From an uncultured beta proteobacterium (GTDB taxonomy: Bacteria > Pseudomonadota > Gammaproteobacteria > Burkholderiales > SG8-39), in the NCBI GenBank assembly GCA_963735025.1, contig CAVTJG010000009.1, positions 1,771,424-1,835,423 of the forward strand: a DNA stretch of 64,000 bases, given 5' to 3'. The notes beneath the pieces were generated by a model. It saw only the letters and a list, made by a program, of their open reading frames with translations. It was not told the DNA's origin and ran no database searches. The first letter of the stretch is position 1, and every line of letters begins with the position of its first letter. The position numbers and the translations under genes are program-made. Below, piece by piece: positions 3,124-52,865 of the stretch.

Positions 3124-3468
3124 TCAGCTGACGCCGAGCAACTCCACTTCGAAGACGAGGGTCGCGTTCGGCGGGATGACGCGGCCGGCACCGCGCGCAC
3201 CGTAGCCGAGTGACGGCGGTATGGTGAGCTTGCGCCGACCGCCGACCTTCATGCCCTGCACGCCCTCGTCCCAGCCCGCGATGACGTGGCGCGCGCCGAG
3301 CGGGAATTCGAATGGGTCATTGCGATCCTTGCTCGAGTCGAACTTGGTTCCGTCGGTGAGCCAGCCCGTGTAATGCACGGTGACGGACTGGCCGGCAGCC
3401 GCTTCCGACCCGTCGCCGACCGCGAGCTCCTCGATGATCAATCCACTGGCCGTGGTATTCGTGCTCAT
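3124..3468 (-). CDS. FKBP-type peptidyl-prolyl cis-trans isomerase
   Basis: 114 aa; [18 protein letters not shown]...[24 protein letters not shown] is a classic FKBP core. Confidence 0.9.
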
Positions 3469-3489
3469 GTGGCAGCCTCCCTTGTCGTC

Positions 3490-4363
3490 CTAGCGCCCGC
3501 TCGCCTGCAGGGCGGCGATGCGCTGCTCGATCGGCGGGTGGGTGGAGAAGAGCGCCATCCAGCCCGGCCGATCGTTGATGCCCATGGTGCGAATCGCCTC
3601 CGGAAGCGCACCGGGCTCGATGCCACCGAGGCGGGCGAGTGCGTTCACCATCGGCCGGCTCGAGCCGAGGTACTGCGCGGAACCCGCATCGGCACGAAAT
3701 TCCCGCCGCCGCGAGAACCACGCGACGATCATCGAGGCGAGGATGCCGAGCGCGATCTGGCAGACGATGGACGTGATGAAGAATCCGGGCCCGACGCCGC
3801 GCTCGGTCTTGAAGATCACGCGGTCGACGAAGAATCCCGCCACGCGTGAGAGGAAGATCACGAAGGTGTTCACGACGCCCTGGATGAGTGTCAGCGTGAC
3901 CATGTCGCCGTTCGCGACGTGCGCGATCTCGTGGCCGAGCACCGCCTCGATCTCCTCCTGGTTCATCGACCCGAGGAGCCCCGTCGAGACCGCTACGAGC
4001 GCCGAATTCTTGAAAGCCCCGGTCGCGAAGGCATTCGGCGCACCCTCGTAGATCGCCACGTCAGGCATGCCGATTTGCGCCTGGTCGGCCAGGTGCTTGA
4101 CGGTGGTGACGAGCCAGCGCTCCGTCTCGTTCTGCCGGCGTCGCGATCACTTTGGCGCCGGTAGACCACTTCGCCATCGGCTTCGAGATCAGCAACGAGA
4201 TGATCGATCCCGCGAAACCGATGACCGCCGAGAAAACCAGGAGCGCGCTGTAGTCGATGCCCTGCTGGGTCAGGTACTGACCGATGCCGAACACCTGCAT
4301 GATGATCGTCAGGACCAGCAGCACGGCGATGTTGGTGACGAGGAACAGTAATATCCGCTTCAT
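3490..4363 (-). pseudogene. htpX: protease HtpX, reading frame broken by one extra base near 4129
   Basis: N-terminal ORF 4061..4363 ([16 protein letters not shown]...KVIATPAE) and C-terminal ORF 3490..4068 ([17 protein letters not shown]...[10 protein letters not shown]) are the two halves of HtpX. Shifting frame at 4129 restores ...[30 protein letters not shown]. Span is 874 nt, i.e. 3n+1. Confidence 0.85.
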
Positions 4364-4513
4364 ACGGAAAACCCTTCAGAGTTGATGCCGGGGAACGGAT
4401 TGCGGCGCGCATGGTAGCACTCCGCCACCACGTCGCCGCGCCGTTCCGCTACCTTGGTGGGTGCGCGGCGGCAGGAAGTTCCCGCACGCGGTTACTGAAT
4501 CCGCGGGCCGCCG

Positions 4514-5182
4514 CTAGTTGCACATCGATTCCAGCTGGGCCCTCATGCGCTGAATGTTCTGCTCGCACATGGCGCGGTTTGCGCCGGCGTTGGCGCACAT
4601 TGTGCCCGGGTTCATGCTGCCGAGCTGCGCCTGGGCCTGCTGGCATTCCGGGCTGTTCTTGTTCATGCGCATGCCCGCACCCGGGCGTGCGCCGATGCCC
4701 ATTCCGGGGCCCGACTGGGTGCACTGCGCGCTCTCGAACGTGTAGCGCGCTTTCATGGAGTAGCTTTCGCCACGGCGCGTTCCCGCCGTCTGCATGAGGA
4801 ACGACTTGTCACCCTCCCGCGTGATCGTGGCGCGCATCGTGCTGTCCGGGCAGGTGGTTTCCATGACCGCCTCGGTGGCGGTGTCCTTCAGAATCTGCAC
4901 TTTGCAGTCGGGCCTTTCCCGGCCTCCCGGGCCGGCCTGATTTCTGCCCATATCCCGGACGTCGTCCATGCAGACCGACATCGCGCCGGGCATGCCGCCC
5001 GCATGTTGGGCGCCTTTCGCGCTCAATTCCAGAAACTCCATCTTCCATTGCCCCTTCTGGAAGGGCGCGTCGCGAAACACCTGCGGCATGGGCATGTCCG
5101 CAGCGAGAGCGAGGGTGCCTGGCGCCACGGCAACCACGGTCAGTGCGCCCAGCGCGATAAAGGCGTTGGAGAATCGGGTCAT
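4514..5182 (-). CDS. secreted Cys-containing protein, DUF3617-like (tentative)
   Basis: 222 aa. N-terminal signal peptide MTRFSNAFIALGALTVVAVAPGTLALA, a GQWKME motif and several conserved-looking Cys. Family assignment is from memory only. Confidence 0.5.
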   Translation of the reverse strand: MTRFSNAFIALGALTVVAVAPGTLALAADMPMPQVFRDAPFQKGQWKMEFLELSAKGAQHAGGMPGAMSVCMDDVRDMGRNQAGPGGRERPDCKVQILKDTATEAVMETTCPDSTMRATITREGDKSFLMQTAGTRRGESYSMKARYTFESAQCTQSGPGMGIGARPGAGMRMNKNSPECQQAQAQLGSMNPGTMCANAGANRAMCEQNIQRMRAQLESMCN

Positions 5183-5270
5183 GTCGGCCTCCTGGTGTGT
5201 GCGGAGGCGATGATAGCAAGCCCCCCGCGAGGCGTCGCGCGGGGGGGCCGGGCGGCGGCTCGTGCGGGCG

Positions 5271-5963
5271 CTACCGGCTCGCCGAGGGTGCGAGCTGGCC
5301 AGCGGTCGCCGGCTCGGCGACGAAGATCTCGACGCGGCGGTTCATCGCACGACCCTGGGCGGTGCTGTTGTCCGCGATGGGATCACGCGAACCGCGTCCG
5401 TCGATTGCGACGCGGGTCGGTGCAACGCCCCGTGCGGACAGATAGTCGCGCGTGCTCGCTGCGCGATTGACCGATAGCGGATTGTTGATCGCGTCGCTCC
5501 CGGTGCTGTCCGTGTACCCGATGATGCGCACCGTCGAGCTGGGATAAGTCGTGAGACCCTGCGCAAAGCGGTCGAGCACGGGCCGCATCTGGGGCTTGAT
5601 GTAAGCCTGGTTCACGTCGAAGGAGATGTCGCTCGGGATCTCCAGCTTGAGCTGGTTGTCCGCCGTCCTGGTCACCTCGACGCCGGTGCCCTGGGTCGCT
5701 TCGTCCATCGCGCGCTTCTGCTCCTGCATGTGCTGGGACCAGACGTATCCGCTTGCAGCGCCAACGGCGGCACCGATGCCGGCGCCCGCGGCTGCGCCGC
5801 GTCCACCGCGGGCGATTCCACCGATCACCGCGCCGGCCGCAGCACCGATGCCGGCGCCCGTGGCAGTCGTCTTCTGCGTCTCGTTCATTCCGGCGCATCC
5901 CGAGAGCGCCAGGGCGCCGATCGCGGTGGCTACGATGATTCGTGACTTGATGTGCGTGTTCAT
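5271..5963 (-). CDS. OmpA-family lipoprotein with glycine-zipper N-terminal region
   Basis: Lipobox LALSGC after start MNTHIKSRII (ATG 5963, AAGGGAG Shine-Dalgarno sequence (SD) upstream). C-terminal OmpA_C motif IIGYTDSTGSDAINNPLSVNRAASTRDYL...NRRVEIFV. Confidence 0.8.
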   Translation of the reverse strand: MNTHIKSRIIVATAIGALALSGCAGMNETQKTTATGAGIGAAAGAVIGGIARGGRGAAAGAGIGAAVGAASGYVWSQHMQEQKRAMDEATQGTGVEVTRTADNQLKLEIPSDISFDVNQAYIKPQMRPVLDRFAQGLTTYPSSTVRIIGYTDSTGSDAINNPLSVNRAASTRDYLSARGVAPTRVAIDGRGSRDPIADNSTAQGRAMNRRVEIFVAEPATAGQLAPSASR

Positions 5964-6168
5964 GAGCTGTGCTCCCTTTCGAGAAATTCGTGGTGCAATT
6001 CTAGCGACGCACCGGCGCAAAAAAAGGACCTGTTGCACTTTGTTACGACCGAAACATCTGGAGCGGAGTAGGCGTCGTCGACAAACGACAGTTTCGGCGC
6101 CGGGAGATGGGGCGGCGTGAGATCCGTCACGTCCTTGTTAACATGGGGTCGAAATCGAAAGGGGCAAG

Positions 6169-7122
6169 ATGGCTGAGCAGAATGATTCCGCGGGCTTGAC
6201 GGACAGTGCGGCGAGCGGACTGCAGCGCGCGCTGCGCGATGGGCGTTTTGTCGTCACCGCCGAAGTTTCGCCCCCACTTTCGGCCGATGCGGCCGCTTTC
6301 GTCGCGCAGGTGACGCCGCTGCGTGGTCTCGCGACCGCCGTCAACGTCACCGACGGCGCCTCGGCGAAGACGCACATGTCGAGTCTCGTGGCTGCGCACT
6401 TTCTCGTGCAGAGCGGCATCGAGCCCGTTCTGCAGATGACTTGCCGTGATCGAAACCGACTGGCATTGCAGGCCGACCTTTTGGGCGCGGTCGCGCTCGG
6501 TATTCGCAATGTTCTGGTGCTGCGCGGCGACGAGCCCTCTGCCGGTGATCAGCCGGAGACCCGGGCAGTCTTCGACCTTGCCACCACGGATGTGCTCGCC
6601 ATGGCGCATCGCATGCGCGCGGAGCGTCGCCTCCCGTCCGGTGCAGAGATCGCGAGCCCGGTGCCGTTGGTGCTTGGTGCGGCGGACACACCGGTCGATC
6701 CGCCGCAGGACTGGCAGCCGGCCGGGCTCATCGCGAAGGCGGCTGCCGGCGCGGATTTCGTGCAGACGCAGTTCTGCATGGATCTGGAGGTCGTGCGTCG
6801 CTATGCCGCGCGACTCCTCGCGCTCGGCATTGCGCAGCGCCTCCCGATACTCATCGGCGTCGCACCGATCCCGTCGGCGCGCTCGGCGCGCTGGATGCGG
6901 GAAAAGCTCTGGGGGACGCTCATTCCGGACGCGCTCGTCGACCGTCTCGAGCGCGCGTCGGATCCGCGGCGCGAGGGGATGCAAGTCTGCGTGGAACTGA
7001 TGCAGGGACTCGCGGCGATTCCGGGTGTTGCCGGCGTGCACGTCATGGCACCCCGCATGCATACGGCGTTGCCGGAAGTCATCAGGGAGTCCGGCGTCGC
7101 GGGGCGTCCGCGCGCAGCCTAG
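6169..7122 (+). CDS. methylenetetrahydrofolate reductase family protein
   Basis: 317 aa. VTAEVSPP...NVTDGASAKTHMSS...LQMTCRDRN...LVLRGD pattern typical of MetF-type TIM-barrel reductases. Confidence 0.7.
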   Translation: MAEQNDSAGLTDSAASGLQRALRDGRFVVTAEVSPPLSADAAAFVAQVTPLRGLATAVNVTDGASAKTHMSSLVAAHFLVQSGIEPVLQMTCRDRNRLALQADLLGAVALGIRNVLVLRGDEPSAGDQPETRAVFDLATTDVLAMAHRMRAERRLPSGAEIASPVPLVLGAADTPVDPPQDWQPAGLIAKAAAGADFVQTQFCMDLEVVRRYAARLLALGIAQRLPILIGVAPIPSARSARWMREKLWGTLIPDALVDRLERASDPRREGMQVCVELMQGLAAIPGVAGVHVMAPRMHTALPEVIRESGVAGRPRAA

Positions 7123-7140
7123 GGGGCCGTCCCCGGAAGT

Positions 7141-7170
7141 CCGTCATTCCCGCTTGCGCGGGAATGACGG
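7141..7170. repeat. REP-like palindrome (GTCATTCCCGC-N4-GCGGGAATGAC core)
   Basis: CCGTCATTCCCGC-ttgc-GCGGGAATGACGG, a perfect 13-bp stem between convergent metF-like and gshA stops. The same core recurs at 25229..25251. Confidence 0.75.
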
Positions 7171-7188
7171 GTCCTAATCGGACCTTTC

Positions 7189-8770
7189 CTATCTCAAGTG
7201 CGGGCCGCCGATCAGGTTCTGGCTGATGTACTGCTGGCGGTAGGTCTCGAACGGCACCTTGTCGGCCGCCTCGATGCTGCGCTGCGTGGCGATCGATTCG
7301 TCGGTCATGTGCGCATATCGCGATTCAATTTCCTGCGTGAAAGGCAGATCCAGCAACGCGTCCCGGTGCCGCATGGATTGCGTTCTGCCGAACTGGACGT
7401 AGGAGTTTGCATGGCTCTCGGCCATCTGGTGCAATATCTGCGCGGACGGCACGCGCGCCGGATCGCCGAGCGCGGACGCGCGCTTCGGCGAGTGCCGCCA
7501 CGTAGGACGACCCGCCGTGGGCAGTGTCGAGCGCGGCGGCGATCGACTCGCTTGCGTCGAGCACTGCGAAACCTCGTTCCCTGAGGGTCGTCCCGGGGCC
7601 GCGTTCGACGAGTTGCAGCGCCGCGTCGCGTCCGCTCTCGGCGACCCGCTGCCGGTCGTAAGTGATCGCGGAGACTTCCTCGGGCGTGTCGGGGGGACTG
7701 TCGTCGAGGAGGCAGTAGAGCAGGAACACGTCGAGAAAGCGCATCGTCTCCGCGGCGATGCCGACCGGGGAGAAGGGATCGAGATCCATCAGCCGGACCT
7801 CGACATACTCTACGCCGCGCTCGCCCAGCGCGTGCAGCGGCCGCTCGCCCCGGCCGATGTGGCGTTTCGGACGGACGGTGCCGTAAAATTCGTTCTCGAT
7901 CTGCAGCAGGCTGGTGGACAGCTGGCGATACTCGTTTCCGTCCCGGATGCCGATGGCTTCGTAGGGCGGATACGGCTCGGTGAGCGCGCCGTGCAACGAC
8001 TGCGCGTAGCTTCCGAGGCCGTTGTAGCTCACGCCGAGCGTCGCCTGCGCATCGCTCTGGTAGCCGAGCGGACCCATGCGCAGCGACGTCGCGTGCGGCA
8101 GATACATCGTTCCGGGCGTCAGTTCCTGCAGCCGATGGGCACGGCCGGCGACGAAGGTGCTGCACACGGTGGGCGACGCGCCGAAGAGATAGAGCAGCAG
8201 CCACGAGTGCCTGCGGAAATTTCGCATCAGGGCGAAGTACGCCGCGTCCTGGAAGAATTCCGTCGCGACACTTCCTCCGGCGACCTTGCGCAGCAGCGGC
8301 CACGCCGCTTCCGGCAGCGAGAAGTTGTAGTGCACGCCGGAGATGGTCTGCATGCGCCGGCCATAGCGATGGCCGAGTCCGAGCCGGTACACGGTCTTGG
8401 TGCGGCCGACGTTCGACGAGCCGTACTGGCCAATGGGAATCGCGTCGTCCGCAGGCAGGCCGCAGGGCATGCTTGCGCACCAGAGCATCTCGTCGCCGAT
8501 CGCTCGATACACGACCTGGTGGATCTGCTCGAGCTCTGCGATGCACGCACCCACATCGGTGTGCACGCCGGTGATCAACTCGAGCTGCGACTCGCTGAAG
8601 TCGGTGGTGATGTGCGGATGCGTGAGCGCCGACCCGAGACCCGCAGGGTGGGGCGTCGTGGCCAGCTTGCCATTCGCCTGCACGCGCAGGCTCTCCTTCT
8701 CGATGCCGCGCCGGATGCCCTTCAGCACCTCGGGAGGCAGCGCATTCAGCCGTTTCTCGATGCCGCTCAA
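7189..8770 (-). pseudogene. gshA: glutamate--cysteine ligase, frame broken by one extra base near 7471-7486
   Basis: ORF 7325..8770 (MSGIEKRLNALPPEVLKGIRRGIEKESLRV...) carries most of GshA. ORF 7189..7452 (..PSAQILHQMAESHANSYVQF...) is the expected C-terminus in another frame. The junction restores ...ALAEAR..LGDPARVPSAQIL. Span is 1582 nt, i.e. 3n+1. Confidence 0.85.
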
Positions 8771-44974: not shown

Positions 44975-45061
44975 GCCGGGATGGCGGAACTGGTAGACGC
45001 ACGGGACTCAAAATCCCGCGCCAGCAATGGCGTGAGAGTTCGATTCTCTCTCCCGGCACCA
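44975..45061 (+). tRNA. tRNA-Leu(CAA), class II with long variable arm, encoded CCA
   Basis: Acceptor GCCGGGA/TCCCGGC, anticodon loop CT-CAA-AA in GGGA/TCCC stem, T arm GAGAG-TTCGATT-CTCTC, 3' ACCA. Confidence 0.9.
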
Positions 45062-45176
45062 TGTCTCAGAGGGGAAATCGGGAATTTTCGATATTCATTC
45101 CCCTAACCATTCACCCAGTTGAATCCTCTCTTCGGACAGTGATTTGAGGTTGGTCCGGTTTCTCGACACTTCTGAA

Positions 45177-46036
45177 CTAGAGTCTGGCCTCTTTCGGGGC
45201 TGACTTCTGACCTTTGCTGGCGAACTCACTCGGGGTCAGACGACCGAGTGAACCATGTGGGCGTTGCTCATTGTAATCGCGCCGCCAGGCCTCGATTCGC
45301 TGCTTCGCGTCTTCGATCGATACAAATTCGTTCACGTTCAGGCATTCGTCGCGCAGCCGGCCGTTGAACGACTCGATGAAGGCGTTCTCCGTAGGCTTGC
45401 CAGGCCGCGTGAAGTCGAGCTTCACGGCGTGGTTCCAAGCCCATTCGTCGAGCGACTTCGAGGTGAACTCGGTGCCGTGGTCGACGGTGATCGCCTTGGG
45501 CAGCGGTCGGCTCAGGGCGACCGCCTTCAGGGCGTCAACGACGCTCTGTCCGGTGAGCGAGAAACTGGTCTCCAGCATCACACTCTCGCGACTCCATTTA
45601 TCGAGCACCGTGAGCACCCGGAATCGCCTGCCGTTCGCCAGCTGATCGTGGACGAAGTCCATGGTCCAGTATTCGTTCACCGTGGTGGCCGTTGGCACCG
45701 GGCCGCGGTGCAGGCTGATGCGTTTACGTCGTCTCACCCGCATGCGCACCTGCAACCCCTCGAGGCGATAGAGCCGGTGCACGCGGTTACGCCCGACCCG
45801 CCAGCCTTCACGGCGGAGCAGAATATGGATGCGCTCATAGCCAAACCGAGGCCGGCTGTGCGCGAGCTCGCGGATGCGCATGCGCAGCGCCGTCTGATCC
45901 TTTGCATGCGAGCGGTAATAGAACGTCGCTCGGCGCAGCAGCGACAGCCGACACGAACGCTTCTTGCTCACCCGGAACCGTTCGTGGATCCACAGCGCAA
46001 TCTCGCGTCGTCGTGCCGGCCTCAGGTCTTTTTTTT
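45177..46036 (-). CDS. IS3-family transposase OrfB (DDE/rve), expressed as an OrfAB fusion by -1 frameshifting
   Basis: The -1 frame reads KKDLRPARRREIALWIHERFRVSKKRSC... into the rve domain (WTMDFV...DHGTEFTS...NAFIESFNGRLRDECLN). Confidence 0.85.
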
Positions 46037-46288
46037 AAGGACCTCCTGCAAGATGTGGCGATCCAGCGTCAGATCCGCCACCAGGCGCTTGAGCCGCGCG
46101 TTCTCGTCCTGCAATTGCCTCAGCTGGCGAAGCTCGGTGACACCAAGATTGCCGTACTTCTTCTTCCAGACGTAAAAGGTAGCCTCTGAGATCCCCATCT
46201 GCCGACACACATCGGCCACCGGCGTCCCGGCTTCGGTTTGGCGCAATGCATAGGTGATCTGCTCCTCGGTGAATCTCGACTTCTTCAT
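46022..46288 (-). CDS. IS3-family transposase OrfA (HTH)
   Basis: MKKSRFTEEQITYALRQTEAGTPVADVCRQMGISEATFYVWKKKYG...leucine-zipper-like LRQLQDENARLKRLVADL. Confidence 0.9.
   Translation of the reverse strand: MKKSRFTEEQITYALRQTEAGTPVADVCRQMGISEATFYVWKKKYGNLGVTELRQLRQLQDENARLKRLVADLTLDRHILQEVLKKKT
46028..46034 (-). promoter_or_regulatory. programmed -1 ribosomal frameshift heptamer A-AAA-AAG
   Basis: Minus-strand CTT-AAA-AAA-AAG-ACC-TGA. The orfB frame is -1 relative to orfA across the A8 run. Confidence 0.7.
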
Positions 46289-47569: not shown

Positions 47570-48085
47570 TTAGATCTTGACCTTGCGCCGCATAAACGCC
47601 AGACCGATGAGCGCCGAGCCGATGAGGATTCTGCTACCGGGCTCAGGCACCGTGGCAGTGGAAAGGGTGAAGGCGTTGCCGCCGTCGTTGCCACACCCGC
47701 CGCGTAACGTTGGGGTGCCGAATTCGCAGCTCGCCGGGCCGCCGTTAACGTCCCAGGCGACAAATTGGTCGTTGAAGCTGTTGTTCGCCGCGCCCACTGT
47801 CAGCACGTAAGGGCTGCCGGCGTTCATCATGCTCGACGTCAGGCCGGTCAGTTCGATCTCATAGACGTCATAGCCAAATCCGTTGGTCAGCAGCAGACTC
47901 ATGTCCGCCGCCGTCAGGTTTACCGTGCCCCCACCGATGCTGTTGTCGAGATAGGTGGTGCCGAGCCACCAGGTGAAGGTGGTCGGGGTGCTGCCCGTGC
48001 GCACCCACAGACTCAGGTCCAGCTCGCCAACGGTGCCGCTGCCGGTTGCAGTGAACGAATCGGCGACCCATTGGAGCGCGCTGCT
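47570..48085 (-). pseudogene. PEP-CTERM sorting-domain protein lacking a start codon and signal peptide
   Basis: C-terminus VPEPGSRILIGSALIGLAFMRRKVKI (PEP motif + TM + basic tail). The frame opens at 48085 just after an in-frame TGA. The first ATG/GTG is GTG 48004. No signal peptide. Confidence 0.6.
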
Positions 48086-48122: not shown

Positions 48123-48626
48123 TCACAGATAAATTACATACTCGATCACCATGTCACGCGCGATCCCGCGTTGCTTCTGAAATGGAAGGAAGGTCTTGAT
48201 CCGAAGCTTCACTAAATTTCCCTCCGCCGTCTTAATCCAATAGACCTTGCCAAGCAATGAATTCGAGGAAGAGGCCGGGTTGAAGAACAGGTCTGGGTAC
48301 TCGGAAATTGGATGCTTGCGGTTGGTGTATTGCGCCTCCGACATGAAACTCGGGCCCAAGGCGAAATTTTGAGTTGGCGGATCGGCCCAGAATACCTTTG
48401 GCAAAGCGCGCAAATACTCGTTCTCATTTCCGCCGCAGAACACGACGTCATACCAGATATCAAAACTCACATTGGGCGGGCGCTGGTCATCCGTCCCGGT
48501 CTCGAAGTCGAATTTTCCACACGCGACAAGCCTCACTTCGTTAGCTGCATTAGCTGTTGGAACAAGAAGCTGGCACCCAAGAAGCAGGCCAAGCAACAAC
48601 CGGAGTGGCGAAGGAGCATTAGACAT
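48123..48626 (-). CDS. hypothetical secreted protein
   Basis: AGGAGAAG SD. Signal peptide MSNAPSPLRLLLGLLLGCQLLVPTANA. Visibly lower G+C. No family recognised. Confidence 0.55.
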   Translation of the reverse strand: MSNAPSPLRLLLGLLLGCQLLVPTANAANEVRLVACGKFDFETGTDDQRPPNVSFDIWYDVVFCGGNENEYLRALPKVFWADPPTQNFALGPSFMSEAQYTNRKHPISEYPDLFFNPASSSNSLLGKVYWIKTAEGNLVKLRIKTFLPFQKQRGIARDMVIEYVIYL

Positions 48627-48849: not shown

Positions 48850-49710
48850 CTAGCCTGTCATCTTCTTGGCTCCAGCTCCGATAATCGCGCCGCCAATAGC
48901 CCCAACAATCGTTCCGGCGACCGCTTCCCCAATCGCTTCGCCGACTGTCCCGGACATAACCCCGCCGCGAACAATTCCCGTGATCGCTCCAACGAACAAC
49001 CCAGTGATGGCGCCACGGATTGCGCCACGGCAAGGGTGCACAAACGTACCAATAATCGGGCCAGCGAAAATGGCGGTCATGGCGGCGGTTATGTTGTAGT
49101 CACGAAAGCCATCGAGAGTCAAAGTAATTGCCGCGCTGACAACTCCGGCGATTAGGCCAACGACCCCGTCGTACGCCCTGTTTGACCGCGGCGCAGACGC
49201 TGACTTGTCTGAGGAAAGTGGCCGCGATGCAGCCTCTCGCGCGCGGATCGCCTGGGTCGGCATTGCAATCGCCGGAGCGTCTCTCACGGCACGCGCCGTA
49301 GCATCCTCGGATTTCGTAGATGGGCCAAGAATGCTTGCGACGTCCTCGAGGAGCTGCCGGAACCCTGGGGCGGTACGAGTGCCGTCCCAGCCGGTCAGGT
49401 CGGCCGCCTGGATCTGGCCGAAGCCGAGCGGCGGCTCTATGTCGTCCATGCGGACCGGGACAAGGAGCCTGCGACGCTTCCCCCGATCAGCCTCCTCGCG
49501 CACCCACTCGGACTCGACGGACGACATCGTCCATACCACCAGCATGCACTTGGTGTCGCGGATTGCCGCCTCAATGACCTCGGCATACGTGCGGCCGGCT
49601 GGGATCCTTCGATCCCACCAGACAGACCATCCCGATGCCTCCAGCGCATCGACGAGCGCCCGAATGCGTCCGCGATCTTCAGTCGCGTAGCTGAGGAAGA
49701 TGTCGGACAT
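48850..49710 (-). CDS. TIR-domain protein with C-terminal glycine-zipper membrane module
   Basis: N-terminus [72 protein letters not shown] (TIR_2-like, with the conserved Glu after SxWV). C-terminus [53 protein letters not shown] (repeated GxxxG). Confidence 0.85.
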
Positions 49711-49790: not shown

Positions 49791-50297
49791 TCAACGTCGC
49801 CGCCACACCCACGGAGGCATCGGGATCGGATCGCGCCATAGGCAGAACTTCCTTTCCGTAGCCTGCCACTCGGGAGACTCGTAGCGGTCCTGGTCTTCGG
49901 GCGACTGCTCCTTCGCATACGCCCGATACCACCACGCGTAATCAGCGCGGATCTGCTCGAGCCCTACGTCGCCGGAGCCATTCAGGATCTTGCAGACCTC
50001 CTGGCCGTATCGATGGCGCTTGCCGCACTCTGCTAGGACGTTGCGATCGTAGATGAGCTTGGAAAGGTCTTCCTTAGATCGGAAGCCAGATGCCTGTCCC
50101 TTCGCGGGCGCATCGATCCCGTTGAGGCGGATCTTGTGCTGACGATTATCAAGGTCGACGGTAGTGATGGTGTCGCCATCGGCGACGCCGACGACGCGAC
50201 CCTTGCTGACCCAAGACTCGGCAGCCGGCGCAGGACCAGAAAAGGCGACCACCATGATGGACGCGATGAGCTACCGAGGGGCATAGCCTCGCTTCAT
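49791..50297 (-). pseudogene. staphylococcal-nuclease-like thermonuclease with an in-frame TAG in the signal peptide
   Basis: VADGDTITT...IRLNGIDAPA...GLEQIRADYAWWYRAY...CLWRD..PMPPWVWRR SNase fold motifs. Upstream in frame: ATG 50297, MKRGYAPR-TAG(50271..50273)-LIASIMVVAFSGPAPAAES. Confidence 0.8.
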
Positions 50298-50745
50298 TGC
50301 CGAAGCGTACTTCACCCCTTGGCAGGCTGCGCCAGAGCGGGACTGCAAAACTTGCCGCTACTCAATCGGACAACCTGACGACGCCCACCTGTGGTGCACG
50401 CAGCACCGACTCGTGGTCGTGTTCGCTTGCGGATGGTGGGAGCTAGAGGCAGGGACCGAGCCCGAAGCGTGCCGGGAATCTGAGCTAGCAGGGCTACTTC
50501 CAGCGGATTCAGTGGCGGATTCCGGAGGCGCCTGCCCGCAGAGCTAGTGTCGGCGTGGGGATTGACGCTCTCTCCGGGCATCTCGGCTCCAACCCATCCC
50601 CGCGTTCTGGAGTGCGGGTGCAGACGAAGGGTGCGGGTGGTTGGCGCCTCTCGGGCGAAGGCTAACACCTGCGACTGGCGCATGCCGGGCGAGGATGGAG
50701 GAGGACAGGGTCCCGGGCACTCCCGGGAGACATCTGGAGGAGACG

Positions 50746-51081: not shown

Positions 51082-51113
51082 TGCGTCAATCCCCCCGCGC
51101 GTCAATCCCCCCG
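51082..51113. repeat. perfect 16-bp tandem duplication GCGTCAATCCCCCCGC x2
   Basis: Read directly. Confidence 0.85.
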
Positions 51114-51121
51114 CAATAGAA

Positions 51122-51502
51122 TTGTCATGTCGCGTGCGCCATCTTTCACGGACACTGGCCATGGCGAATCGCGAAAGTTGCGTCTGTCTCTCTGAATGCA
51201 GCAGTGTCCCAAAACCGCTTTTCCACAAGGGTCCTCAAATAGAACGCATCGAGCGAACCGAGATATTCGGTCGACATGTGATCTCAGCGATCGCCCTCAG
51301 CGCCTCCGGCGTAGGCTCACGCCGCGTCTGGGAGGTCGATGTGGCCGCAATGGGGCTTGCCAGCGGGCCCGATGTGCCGCTCGTTCGGTTATCGCCGTCT
51401 CGGTGGACTTTGGGCGGCGATCCGGGCAATGCAATCGAGGCCGCCATAGAAGAAGTGCGGCGCGTGCTCGACACGATCGATGTTGAGTCTCCGCCTGCCT
51501 GA
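51122..51502 (+). CDS. hypothetical protein (weak call)
   Basis: 126-aa track ORF. The 3' two-thirds has coding-like GC3. No family recognised. It occupies the DNA that replaces the missing 3' end of the GDPD gene on the other strand. Confidence 0.25.
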   Translation: MSCRVRHLSRTLAMANRESCVCLSECSSVPKPLFHKGPQIERIERTEIFGRHVISAIALSASGVGSRRVWEVDVAAMGLASGPDVPLVRLSPSRWTLGGDPGNAIEAAIEEVRRVLDTIDVESPPA

Positions 51503-51544
51503 CCGTCTCTCTTTTCCTGAATCGAATGCGGGCAACGCGCGATC

Positions 51545-52575
51545 GCGCGAGAAGCGCGGGCATTGGCGGAGCGAAGATCCGGACGCCCTTCTTCCGGATT
51601 TCCCGCAACTCCGCGTAGGTGAGGGGCGGCACTAGCGGCGTCGCGGTCGGATCGACGTCATCGAGATAGACCGCCTGCTTGCCGAACGCCGGCGCGTGCT
51701 TGATCCAGTACAGCACGTCGTTGATGTCGAACGACTGCAGCCAGACGTTCTTCGGGTCGACGCCTTCGGCGACCAGCGTGTCGATCATCTTCTGCGCGTA
51801 GGTTTCCTGGCCGCCGAAGATCGCATTGATGCGAGCGGGGTCGCCGCTCTTCAGCTCCGGCGTGTGCTTGACGCCCAGCTTCTCATTGAGTTCGATACTC
51901 TCCTTCAGCGTCATGAGCGTTCCGCGGCCGGTGTAGAGATCACTACGCCAGCTCGCGGTGCCGCCCAGAGACGCTTCGGCCGTCGTGGCGGCCGGGGTTG
52001 CTGGCGTCCATCTTGACGGTCAGCGTCTTGAACTGCTCGAGCGTGATGTCGCTTGTGCAGCACTTTGGCGACGAGTTCTGGCCGTTCCATGGCTTGGTAC
52101 ACCACCCGTTGAGATCGGTGTTGACGATGTTCGTGGTGGTGTGCAGGTCGCATTCGGAATGGCGGCAGACCAGCTCGCCATCCTTTGTGAACGTCACGTC
52201 ACATTCGACTATTCCAGCGCCCTGCCGCGCCCCGCTCACATAGGCCTCGCGGGTGTGCTCGGGAAACTGCAGCGCGGCGCCGCGATGCCCGATCGAGAAA
52301 TCGGTGCGGTAGAACGGCCCCTCCTTGCAGCTTTGCAGCTTGTCCTTGAGTCGGCTATCGTCCATGCCGTCGACCAGGTAGAACGGGCGCGGCCCGAGCT
52401 GCGCACCGGTGAGCGGCTTCCGGCGATCGTCATCGCCGTCACGGCTGCCTTTGTGATCGGAATCGTATCGGTTGTCGTTCGAGCGGGAGTCGGAATCGGC
52501 CAGCGCGGGGGATGCGGCAAACGTCGTCGCGGCCAGCAACACGACCAATCCGAGGGCGTGCGTATTGATGATCAC
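51545..52575 (-). pseudogene. glycerophosphodiester phosphodiesterase (GlpQ-like), frameshifted near 51991-51997 and 3'-truncated
   Basis: GTG 52575 gives the signal peptide [30 protein letters not shown] motif [24 protein letters not shown]. The corrected junction reads ..[46 protein letters not shown]. Similarity ends after GVRIFAPPM (about 51545) in all three frames. Confidence 0.75.
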
Positions 52576-52865
52576 CTCGAGTTCCTTCCGTGTGTTGTGG
52601 AGGTTTCGGTGGGACAGCGATACGACAATGTCATCCTCGCTTCCCGGAGCCAACATACGTGCGGACGATTGCTGCCTGGTGACCACAACGAGGCGCGGAC
52701 GTTACAGATTTCGCGCGATGGATTGCCTTGGTGGATGCACGGCGGCGCGCGTTGCGATGCTGCCATGACGCGACGCACATCGACACGTAGCCCTTTTGGA
52801 TATCCTGTCGGGGACGCCATGTGGTCTGTCGTCCGTCAGGCGTTCCGATCCAATGTGGAGCACCT

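Follow-up and report, generated by a model that had tools for sequence, protein, structure and literature searches.

In a window of 64,000 nucleotides from an uncultured beta proteobacterium (the whole stretch analysed here: contig CAVTJG010000009.1, positions 1,771,424 to 1,835,423; Burkholderiales, lineage SG8-39), a complete gene on the minus strand, taken from the list of open reading frames (ORFs; 48850..49710, stop codon 48850-48852), codes for a protein of 286 residues. In this protein an N-terminal TIR domain is followed by a linker and then by four short glycine-rich helices predicted to lie in the membrane. We tentatively read it as a membrane-tethered TIR NADase, the clustering of which would be controlled via a glycine-zipper bundle, possibly with a periplasmic partner encoded downstream, here named Sec167. 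Bacterial TIR proteins have been studied almost wholly as soluble components of phage defence. A preliminary description of this DNA had proposed instead either a single-protein abortive-infection effector that would disrupt membranes or a membrane-anchored sensor, located in a defence island. An identical protein sequence is already on record, in one NCBI/ENA contig.

The protein truly belongs to the TIR_2 family. Its first 130 residues (49321..49710, minus strand) make up the domain, as delimited from Pfam TIR_2, AlphaFold2 (AF2), Foldseek and codon-position differences. Pfam TIR_2 (PF13676) matches residues 4-121 with E=1.6e-24 and 87.2 bits, far above the cut-off of 28, and its profile is spanned whole (positions 1-122 of 122); the classic TIR and the ThsB_TIR models of Pfam give sub-threshold matches only. 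The AF2 model, built from a four-sequence alignment, displays a TIR fold over residues 1-130 with a predicted local distance difference test (pLDDT) of about 80-89. Among the matches that Foldseek retrieves from the PDB at probability 1.00 are the TIR domains of SPARTA TIR-APAZ, Hydra TRR-2, AbTir, MyD88, MAL and SARM1. The preliminary description, which had recognized a TIR_2-type domain with its catalytic-type glutamate retained, was right on both counts. The motif that it quoted is present: W69-V-R-E-E73, of the form WxxxE (codon of E73 at 49492..49494, minus strand), aligns with W-T-N-Y-E of AbTIR and W-P-Q-K-E of PdTIR when the protein is compared by phmmer with solved structures, and because E73 pairs with the glutamate of both enzymes it is the counterpart of the catalytic residue. 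It is invariant in the aligned TIR-domain relatives (122/122) and it is also found in all four proteins that combine a TIR domain with the four-helix module. F5, S7, Y8, D33 and G39 are kept in 121 of these 122 relatives (with a gap in the remaining one) and P85 in every one. Judging from the position of its glutamate, the domain is predicted to be of the catalytic, NAD-cleaving type.

Further along the chain comes a low-complexity linker, residues 131-180 (49171..49320, minus strand), its limits taken from pLDDT, length variation and codon-position differences. About 50 residues long where some 45 had been anticipated, it is predicted to be disordered (AF2 pLDDT below 50 over about residues 131-182), and its length differs between the aligned members of the family. 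The module proper, residues 181-286 (48853..49170, minus strand), was delimited from hydropathy, AF2, conservation and codon positions. It comprises 106 residues, 21% of them Gly, 16% Ala and 14% Ile, in four hydrophobic segments: H1 (residues ~181-200, 49111-49170), H2 (~206-224, 49039-49095), H3 (~229-249, 48964-49026) and H4 (~256-282, 48865-48945), all on the minus strand. AF2 places the helices at 178-199, 207-223, 230-253 and 256-285. Two runs of glycines with a period of four punctuate them, G229, G233, G237, G241, G245 and G249 on the one hand, and G266, G270, G274 and G278 on the other, of which G229, G241, G245, G249 and the four residues of the second run do not vary among the four members of the family. 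This is the defining pattern of a glycine zipper, (G/A/S)xxxGxxxG, with at least three small residues at period four in a conserved hydrophobic helix. The region corresponds to the ~110 residues of hydrophobic GxxxG repeats mentioned in the preliminary description, now resolved into four segments that are conserved in relatives.

This module is extremely rare. When residues 176-286 were compared exhaustively, by phmmer, with 1.84 billion representative proteins, seven matches were obtained, of which three were accepted as true: P0002 (272 residues, E=1e-29), P0122 (271 residues, E=2e-9) and P0124 (264 residues, E=2e-6). The other four (P0121, P0123, P0125 and P0126) were rejected, being long G/N/V or G/A/V/D repeat proteins matched by composition. 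A profile search with the four C-terminal modules returned 8000 candidates, mostly low-complexity and glycine-rich, in which the true members were left unscored; it thus gives no evidence of absence, and it is the exhaustive phmmer search that provides a valid measure of rarity. As far as these representatives tell, there are four clusters, including that of the window, and the module always stands after an N-terminal TIR domain. The three relatives share the whole architecture: their TIR is N-terminal, and the four segments recur after a linker that varies in length. Their TIR domains are just ~30% identical to that of the window, and the module positions are nonetheless kept: D200, N206, G217-P218, G221, G229, A234, G241, G245 and R248-G249 are invariant in the four members, as are G254, E258-A259, E262, G266, G270, G274 and G278. 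A metagenome scan for the module found no match; neither did PADLOC, NCBIfam or PHROGs, nor a profile search of the PDB with the four-member alignment. The fusion of TIR and module is covered by no curated family or defence catalogue consulted (Pfam, NCBIfam, PADLOC, PHROGs), and we found no paper that joins a TIR domain to a glycine zipper in bacteria, so that the description of this architecture as uncharacterized still stands.

One might fear that a sequence of this composition is a mere by-product of GC-rich DNA. The closest relative of the gene, in locus L001, shares with it 63% of amino acids and 71% of nucleotides, and the differences between the two, counted by codon position, are telling. 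They are distributed 14/11/56 in the TIR domain and 28/16/50 in the module, with the third position dominant, as against 16/18/24, evenly spread, in the linker. We therefore see purifying selection on the module in this reading frame, and none on the linker. A sequencing or frame artefact as the origin of the module was rejected on the same evidence, and the pattern argues that the module is genuine, conserved and selected, rather than noise.

How the module would sit in the membrane was considered from the four family members, using Kyte-Doolittle means and simple sums on the Hessa scale. The Kyte-Doolittle means of the four segments lie between 1.5 and 2.5 in all members (1.5-1.8 in the protein of the window). 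Segments 1 and 4 are plainly of the transmembrane (TM) type in P0002, P0122 and P0124, with Hessa sums between -1.5 and +0.5, and segments 2 and 3 are marginal there. The distribution of charges is the same throughout the family: basic residues ahead of helix 1, a neutral or acidic loop between H1 and H2 (LDGxxxYN), two basic residues in the short loop between H2 and H3, a neutral or acidic segment between H3 and H4 (RGxxxxGxxxEAxxE) and a basic C-terminus. As this pattern fits the positive-inside rule, we infer a four-pass bundle with both ends in the cytoplasm. The predicted topology would consist of two hairpins with very short periplasmic loops.

To understand what such an anchor may mean, the protein must be placed among its relatives. 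Searching with the full-length sequence gave 461 matches, nearly all of them covering the TIR half only; the counts that follow come from the best 120. The nearest relatives are found in metagenome-assembled genomes (MAGs) of Burkholderiales. The TIR domain is N-terminal in 115 of the 120, and where at least 60 residues follow it, at least one TM segment is predicted in 94 of 110 proteins, with exactly one in 88. This contradicts a premise of the preliminary description, that bacterial TIR domains are paired with soluble domains: within this clade, tethering to the membrane would be the norm, and what looks new is the four-helix module in place of a single TM segment with its ectodomain. The regions beyond the TM segment vary (coiled coil, Big_2, FGE-sulfatase, repeats), and many proteins from Rhodocyclales end with a short cysteine-containing tail, RCxDLLxRxQLGE. 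A constant cytoplasmic TIR domain, presumably the output, would thus typically be associated with a diversifying membrane or outside part. Particularly instructive are P0003, P0004, P0005 and P0010, with TIR domains 70-74% identical to that of the window, and a match in locus L002 (3017-4387), where identity reaches 77%. Their C-terminal half is made of one TM segment, a long coiled coil rich in Arg, Glu and Ala (with repeats of the type EERRRAEEAAR) and a conserved domain of ~170 residues. Such near-identical TIR domains followed by wholly different C-terminal halves indicate recent swapping of the region that follows the linker.

The genomic setting of the clade opens the way to a different interpretation, in which these proteins would form a chromosomal module for membrane signalling or envelope maintenance, the gene of the window being a rare variant that does not act on phages. 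We see this as a serious candidate, though a doubtful one. P0038 and P0050 sit in a conserved core-genome neighbourhood, amid fumC, sodC and cysDN, where the stop codon of the TIR gene overlaps by 4 bp a downstream gene for an OmpA-domain protein of the peptidoglycan-binding type (416-427 residues), and P0020 is surrounded by ABC transporter and redox genes. Scanning viral contigs and phage records disclosed no relatives, and plasmid records gave TIR-only matches; in addition, PADLOC found no defence partner among the neighbours scanned in the window. Several facts pull the other way. The copy considered here lies in an atypical, tRNA-adjacent patch with an insertion sequence (IS) and pseudogenes, which is accessory rather than core DNA; the swapping of C-terminal halves between TIR domains 70-77% identical is typical of conflict systems; and the catalytic glutamate is strictly conserved. 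To our knowledge, moreover, all the bacterial TIR proteins with an assigned physiological function are so far immune or toxin proteins.

The pair formed with the OmpA gene deserves mention for its own sake. TIR-TM proteins of ~310 residues, a common type, with an OmpA gene overlapping theirs by 4 bp, were found in the fumC, sodC and cysDN neighbourhood of several Rhodocyclales-type genomes (L029, 8001-10171; L031, 8001-10234; L032, 922-3155; L034, 1771-4004). They form a conserved core-genome unit in which no defence context was seen and for which we found no described function.

The gene of the window is coupled to another type of companion. Downstream, on the same strand, sec167 (48123..48626, minus strand) codes for a protein of 167 residues with a signal-peptide-like N-terminal segment, presumably secreted and a candidate partner; the gene is preceded by an AGGAGA ribosome-binding site. 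In L001, L022 and L023 the TIR-4-helix gene is likewise followed by a gene the product of which is 66-69% identical to Sec167. What comes after differs, a metK-like ORF in L022 against a PEP-CTERM gene in the window. With a conserved pair and both flanks different, the two genes travel together. The sec167 family comprises seven clusters; it has no match in Pfam, PADLOC, NCBIfam or PHROGs and none in the metagenome scan, and its AF2 model, from six sequences, is unusable (pLDDT 40). Looking at the other members of the family, we noticed that they always adjoin a gene for a membrane or a TIR protein. In L027 (1247-2380) the gene that comes after a relative of sec167 is a decayed TIR gene with 54% identity to the TIR domain of the window, next to IS1595. 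In L024-26 and L028, this place is occupied by a gene for a polytopic membrane protein of 470 residues with a cytoplasmic domain (L024, 5204-7231; L028, 647-1950). This 470-residue protein belongs to no Pfam, PADLOC or NCBIfam family, and was rejected as a relative of the TIR-4-helix family after comparison by hhalign, which shows no relationship. Besides the sec167 relative (sec171) and the TIR remnant, the L027 locus (3385-8515) contains genes for an IS1595 transposase, a trypsin-PAN protein and the HicA toxin. This accessory region, with its toxin-antitoxin element, is the sole hint of a conflict-type context that we have seen.

These associations make Sec167 look like a modular periplasmic partner. 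A bolder proposal, which we regard as improbable, is that the two genes specify a split receptor, the equivalent in bacteria of Toll-like transmembrane signalling. An event at the envelope, for instance the adsorption of a phage, the injection of its DNA or damage to the cell wall, would be detected by the periplasmic protein, which would signal via the conserved charged face of the bundle, so as to cluster the cytoplasmic TIR NADase. Such a sensor would be modular, since its relatives pair with another TIR protein or with the unrelated 470-residue one.

The presence of a small conserved gene downstream might also evoke a very different pair, that of a toxin and its immunity protein. The TIR protein would then act as an NADase toxin, either secreted or delivered by contact, with the zipper helping it to cross the target membrane, as glycine zippers mediate translocation or toxicity of effectors of the type VI and type VII secretion systems (T6SS, PMC10240207; T7SS, PMC10434224). 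This is very improbable. There is no N-terminal trafficking domain, as the TIR domain begins at residue 1; the annotated neighbourhood, over ~8 kb, showed no gene of a secretion system; the downstream protein has a signal peptide, when immunity against an NADase is needed in the cytoplasm; and the positive-inside pattern fits a resident protein of the inner membrane. The features expected of polymorphic or secreted toxins are, in short, those that this locus lacks.

We return to the membrane-tethered NADase that we favour. TIR active sites form across TIR-TIR interfaces, and activity needs induced self-association, as in AbTir filaments, SPARTA tetramers, SARM1 and TIR-STING, all of which figure among the Foldseek matches. 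Regulation is for this reason most likely the task of the membrane module. Its exclusive fusion to TIR, together with the fact that the closest TIR relatives mostly associate TIR, TM segment and a variable outside domain, would lend support to this reading. In our scenario, a cytoplasmic TIR domain, of the NAD+-cleaving or signal-producing type, would be held at the inner membrane by its flexible linker of ~50 residues, the anchor being a compact four-helix glycine-zipper bundle with almost no extracytoplasmic mass. The GxxxG faces would drive or restrain the packing of helices, within protomers or between them. A change in the envelope, brought about by phage attack or by some other stress, would re-pack or cluster the bundles, and the conserved D200, N206, R248, E258 and E262, at the predicted periplasmic face, might help to sense it; the co-inherited Sec167 may supply the signal. 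The tethered TIR domains would then meet, resulting in consumption of NAD+ or production of a signal. TIR systems of Escherichia coli are known to protect against phages in a manner that depends on the active site, and they include single-protein systems as well as one with a TM domain (PMC11350192).

The bundle might do more than bring TIR domains together. In the scheme closest to abortive infection by a single protein, oligomerization of the TIR domain upon some trigger would pull the four-helix modules into a pore or a lesion, with or without depletion of NAD+. Glycines at period four, and conserved charged residues in or near the helices (R248, E258, E262), could line a channel, and the marginal hydrophobicity of the segments is reminiscent of conditionally inserted pore formers. 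CBASS, Pycsar, Thoeris II and type III CRISPR systems also make frequent use of membrane-disrupting TM effectors. Finally, the T7SS effector TelE (PMC10434224) and the T6SS effector Tde1 (PMC10240207) need their glycine zippers in order to be toxic or to be translocated across a membrane. We nevertheless consider a pore unlikely. The known TM effectors carry a soluble domain that senses a ligand (SAVED, cNMP-binding, Macro, CARF), not a TIR domain of the catalytic type; nothing akin to the module was found among the holins and effectors of PHROGs, PADLOC, Pfam or the PDB; and neither the neighbours in the window nor the sampled loci of the clade show a defence context. The membrane part of the clade, normally a plain TM segment with an outside domain, speaks for anchoring or sensing rather than killing. 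Between the two possibilities contemplated in the preliminary description, disruption of the membrane or a membrane-anchored sensor, the architecture of the clade thus favours the latter.

A number of observations weigh against a TIR enzyme switched by a zipper bundle, and against its involvement in immunity. W69 of the WxxxE motif is replaced by Asn in P0122 and P0124, making catalytic equivalence across the TIR-4-helix family uncertain. The helices of the module have AF2 pLDDT values of 50-73 only, from an alignment of four sequences. In the protein of the window all four segments are marginal (Hessa sums of +2.6 to +4.3), and insertion of the module into the membrane, like its topology, is a prediction. 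While the zipper motif is there, as had been claimed, the corresponding Pfam models do not recognize it: the best, Gly-zipper_OmpA, reaches 16.2 bits for a cut-off of 27 (E=0.009), and Gly-zipper_Omp (14.4 bits for 25) and Gly-zipper_YMGG (8.0 for 28.9) are below their cut-offs as well. The pairing with sec167 is known from two lineages only; at the P0124 loci a DUF3795 gene takes its place, and the P0122 contig is too short to show the downstream gene. No defence gene was recognized near the gene of the window, and the sampled contexts of the clade, a small sample, are of the housekeeping type, so that a part in immunity would have to be extrapolated from what other TIR proteins do.

What is at stake goes beyond this gene. 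The large clade of membrane-anchored TIR proteins, with its predicted topology akin to that of Toll-like receptors, is possibly a more consequential lead than the gene of the window alone, which would specify a rare, compact version where the outside domain has been replaced by a conserved, TIR-exclusive four-helix bundle. If this bundle controls the clustering of TIR domains, or forms a pore, the 286 residues of the protein would make a minimal system for switching a TIR enzyme by an event in the membrane. If it does neither, this will be one more uncharacterized accessory membrane protein.

The locus has its own history. Between ~45 and ~53 kb of the window, the G+C content falls to 0.54-0.62, compared with 0.65-0.69 in the backbone, and at third codon positions it is 0.69 in the TIR gene and 0.61 in sec167, compared with ~0.8-0.9 in backbone genes. 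The edge of this patch is marked by a tRNA-Leu(CAA) gene (44975..45061, plus strand; ARAGORN and Rfam). Directly after it, where the ~8 kb of lower G+C content start (44975-46288), stands an IS3-family element (45177..46288, minus strand), with orfA at 46022-46288 and orfB at 45177-45971, recognized by Pfam HTH_Tnp_1 and rve/rve_3. No repeat of the 3' end of the tRNA was found within the window and no integrase was seen. We are probably dealing with a decayed genomic island or accessory region. The preliminary description had spoken of an IS-rich, low-GC patch: the composition is as stated, but the patch is not rich in IS, as the IS3 element is present in a single copy in the window.

The rest of its contextual argument fares less well. 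The staphylococcal-nuclease (SNase) homologue upstream (49791..50255, minus strand; Pfam SNase, E=1.9e-9), which had been taken as a sign of defence, is not conserved beside the only close homologue: in L001 the DNA resembles that of the window from the TIR start codon onwards, and it is a gene for a RidA-like repeat protein, not SNase, that lies upstream. The nuclease gene was for this reason rejected as part of the TIR unit. It has no recognizable signal peptide at its maximal ORF start and may be truncated; the viral family that it matches best is the very large phrog_8809 (E=5e-18), the match being to an internal part. PADLOC, applied to the SNase homologue, Sec167 and the PEP-CTERM protein, yields only a weak SNase match (E=8.6e-4) and no known defence protein, and for the TIR gene itself matches to the TIR core only. 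Surveying the neighbourhoods of those homologues sampled on long contigs, admittedly few, led to housekeeping contexts, with fumC, sodC, cysDN and ABC transporter genes, rather than the defence island that had been expected.

Other features of the patch may be recorded briefly. A small protein with a PEP-CTERM sorting signal is encoded near sec167 (47570-48004, minus strand), in the lower-GC patch; proteins of this type imply an exosortase system in the host. A small PEP-CTERM protein is likewise found near a sec167-family gene in the unrelated locus L024 (1715-2179), a recurrence that may be coincidental. On the other side, two adjacent ORFs of 205 and 247 residues (51297-52686, minus strand) appear to form a split gene for a glycerophosphodiester phosphodiesterase (GDPD). 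In the upstream one, ~95 residues match the first 75 of the 244 positions of the GDPD profile, and the pair is likely a pseudogene split by a frameshift. Between the SNase gene and these fragments, ~1 kb without a convincing ORF contains the 16-nucleotide unit GCGTCAATCCCCCCGC, perfectly duplicated in tandem (51083-51114), with an inverted copy, 94% complementary, ~515 bp upstream (50553-50568). Scanning for promoters and terminators gave nothing beyond chance, and Rfam found no RNA family other than the tRNA.

It remains to compare the protein with systems already described. It is not a Thoeris component. It falls below the thresholds of the relevant models (16.3 bits for 21.2 with Pfam ThsB_TIR, 29.7 for 220 with NCBIfam ThcB4), the ThsB models of PADLOC match the TIR core only (E from 6e-5 to 7e-3), and no ThsA, whether of the SIR2/SLOG or Macro-TM type, is present among its neighbours (SNase homologue, Sec167, PEP-CTERM protein, IS3, GDPD fragments). 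An effector of CBASS or Pycsar was similarly rejected. The protein has no SAVED, STING or cNMP-binding domain, there is no cyclase nearby, and the match to SAVED_TIR in PADLOC is restricted to residues 3-74, in the TIR core. The TM effectors of such systems (Macro-TM ThsA of type II Thoeris, PycTM, Cap14/Cap15, Cam1) do resemble it in associating a small soluble cytoplasmic domain with a few TM helices, and in a mechanism that involves oligomerization at the membrane. Their soluble domain, however, binds a nucleotide signal made by a separately encoded neighbouring enzyme, whereas that of our protein is a TIR of the catalytic type, with no cyclase, ThsB-like partner or sensor domain in view.

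With the small soluble bacterial TIR proteins (AbTIR and PdTIR were compared), it shares the TIR_2-type fold, the aligned catalytic glutamate, a small size and the lack of any other enzymatic domain. Identity is low (E ~1e-5 to 1e-4), and those proteins are soluble, with a coiled coil or no extra domain; anti-phage or NADase activity has been demonstrated for them and is putative in ours. The zipper peptides and toxins (Pfam Gly-zipper_OmpA, Omp and YMGG; TelE; Tde1) have, like the module, consecutive (G/A/S)xxxG motifs in hydrophobic helices. They differ in that they are either short peptides of the lipoprotein type or portions of secreted toxins, none of them fused to TIR.

The closest kin are the uncharacterized membrane-anchored TIR proteins of Burkholderiales, Rhodocyclales and other bacteria (P0003-P0120, among them proteins from MAGs of Dechloromonas, Hydrogenophaga and Azonexus), with a TIR domain 45-77% identical to that of the window. 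They too have an N-terminal TIR domain, an invariant catalytic glutamate and a low-complexity linker leading to one or several membrane segments. They carry, however, one TM helix and 95-300 residues of variable extracytoplasmic sequence, in contrast with four short glycine-rich helices and no outside domain, and many of their genes are coupled to that of an OmpA-domain protein, whereas here the coupling is with sec167. Among eukaryotic proteins, a likeness is found in the Toll receptors, by way of analogy only, as homology is confined to the TIR fold. The TIR domain of Hydra TRR-2 ranks fourth in the Foldseek search, with a TM-score of 0.82 on the target. Hydra TRR proteins are membrane-anchored TIR proteins without a ligand-binding ectodomain (PMC7075850), and TRR-2, part of a split receptor, is comparable in its logic with the arrangement predicted here: a cytoplasmic TIR domain on a bare membrane anchor, for which, in our case, a separately encoded extracytoplasmic protein is the candidate partner. 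The polarity is opposite, with TIR at the N-terminus of the bacterial protein, and the anchor consists of four helices instead of one.

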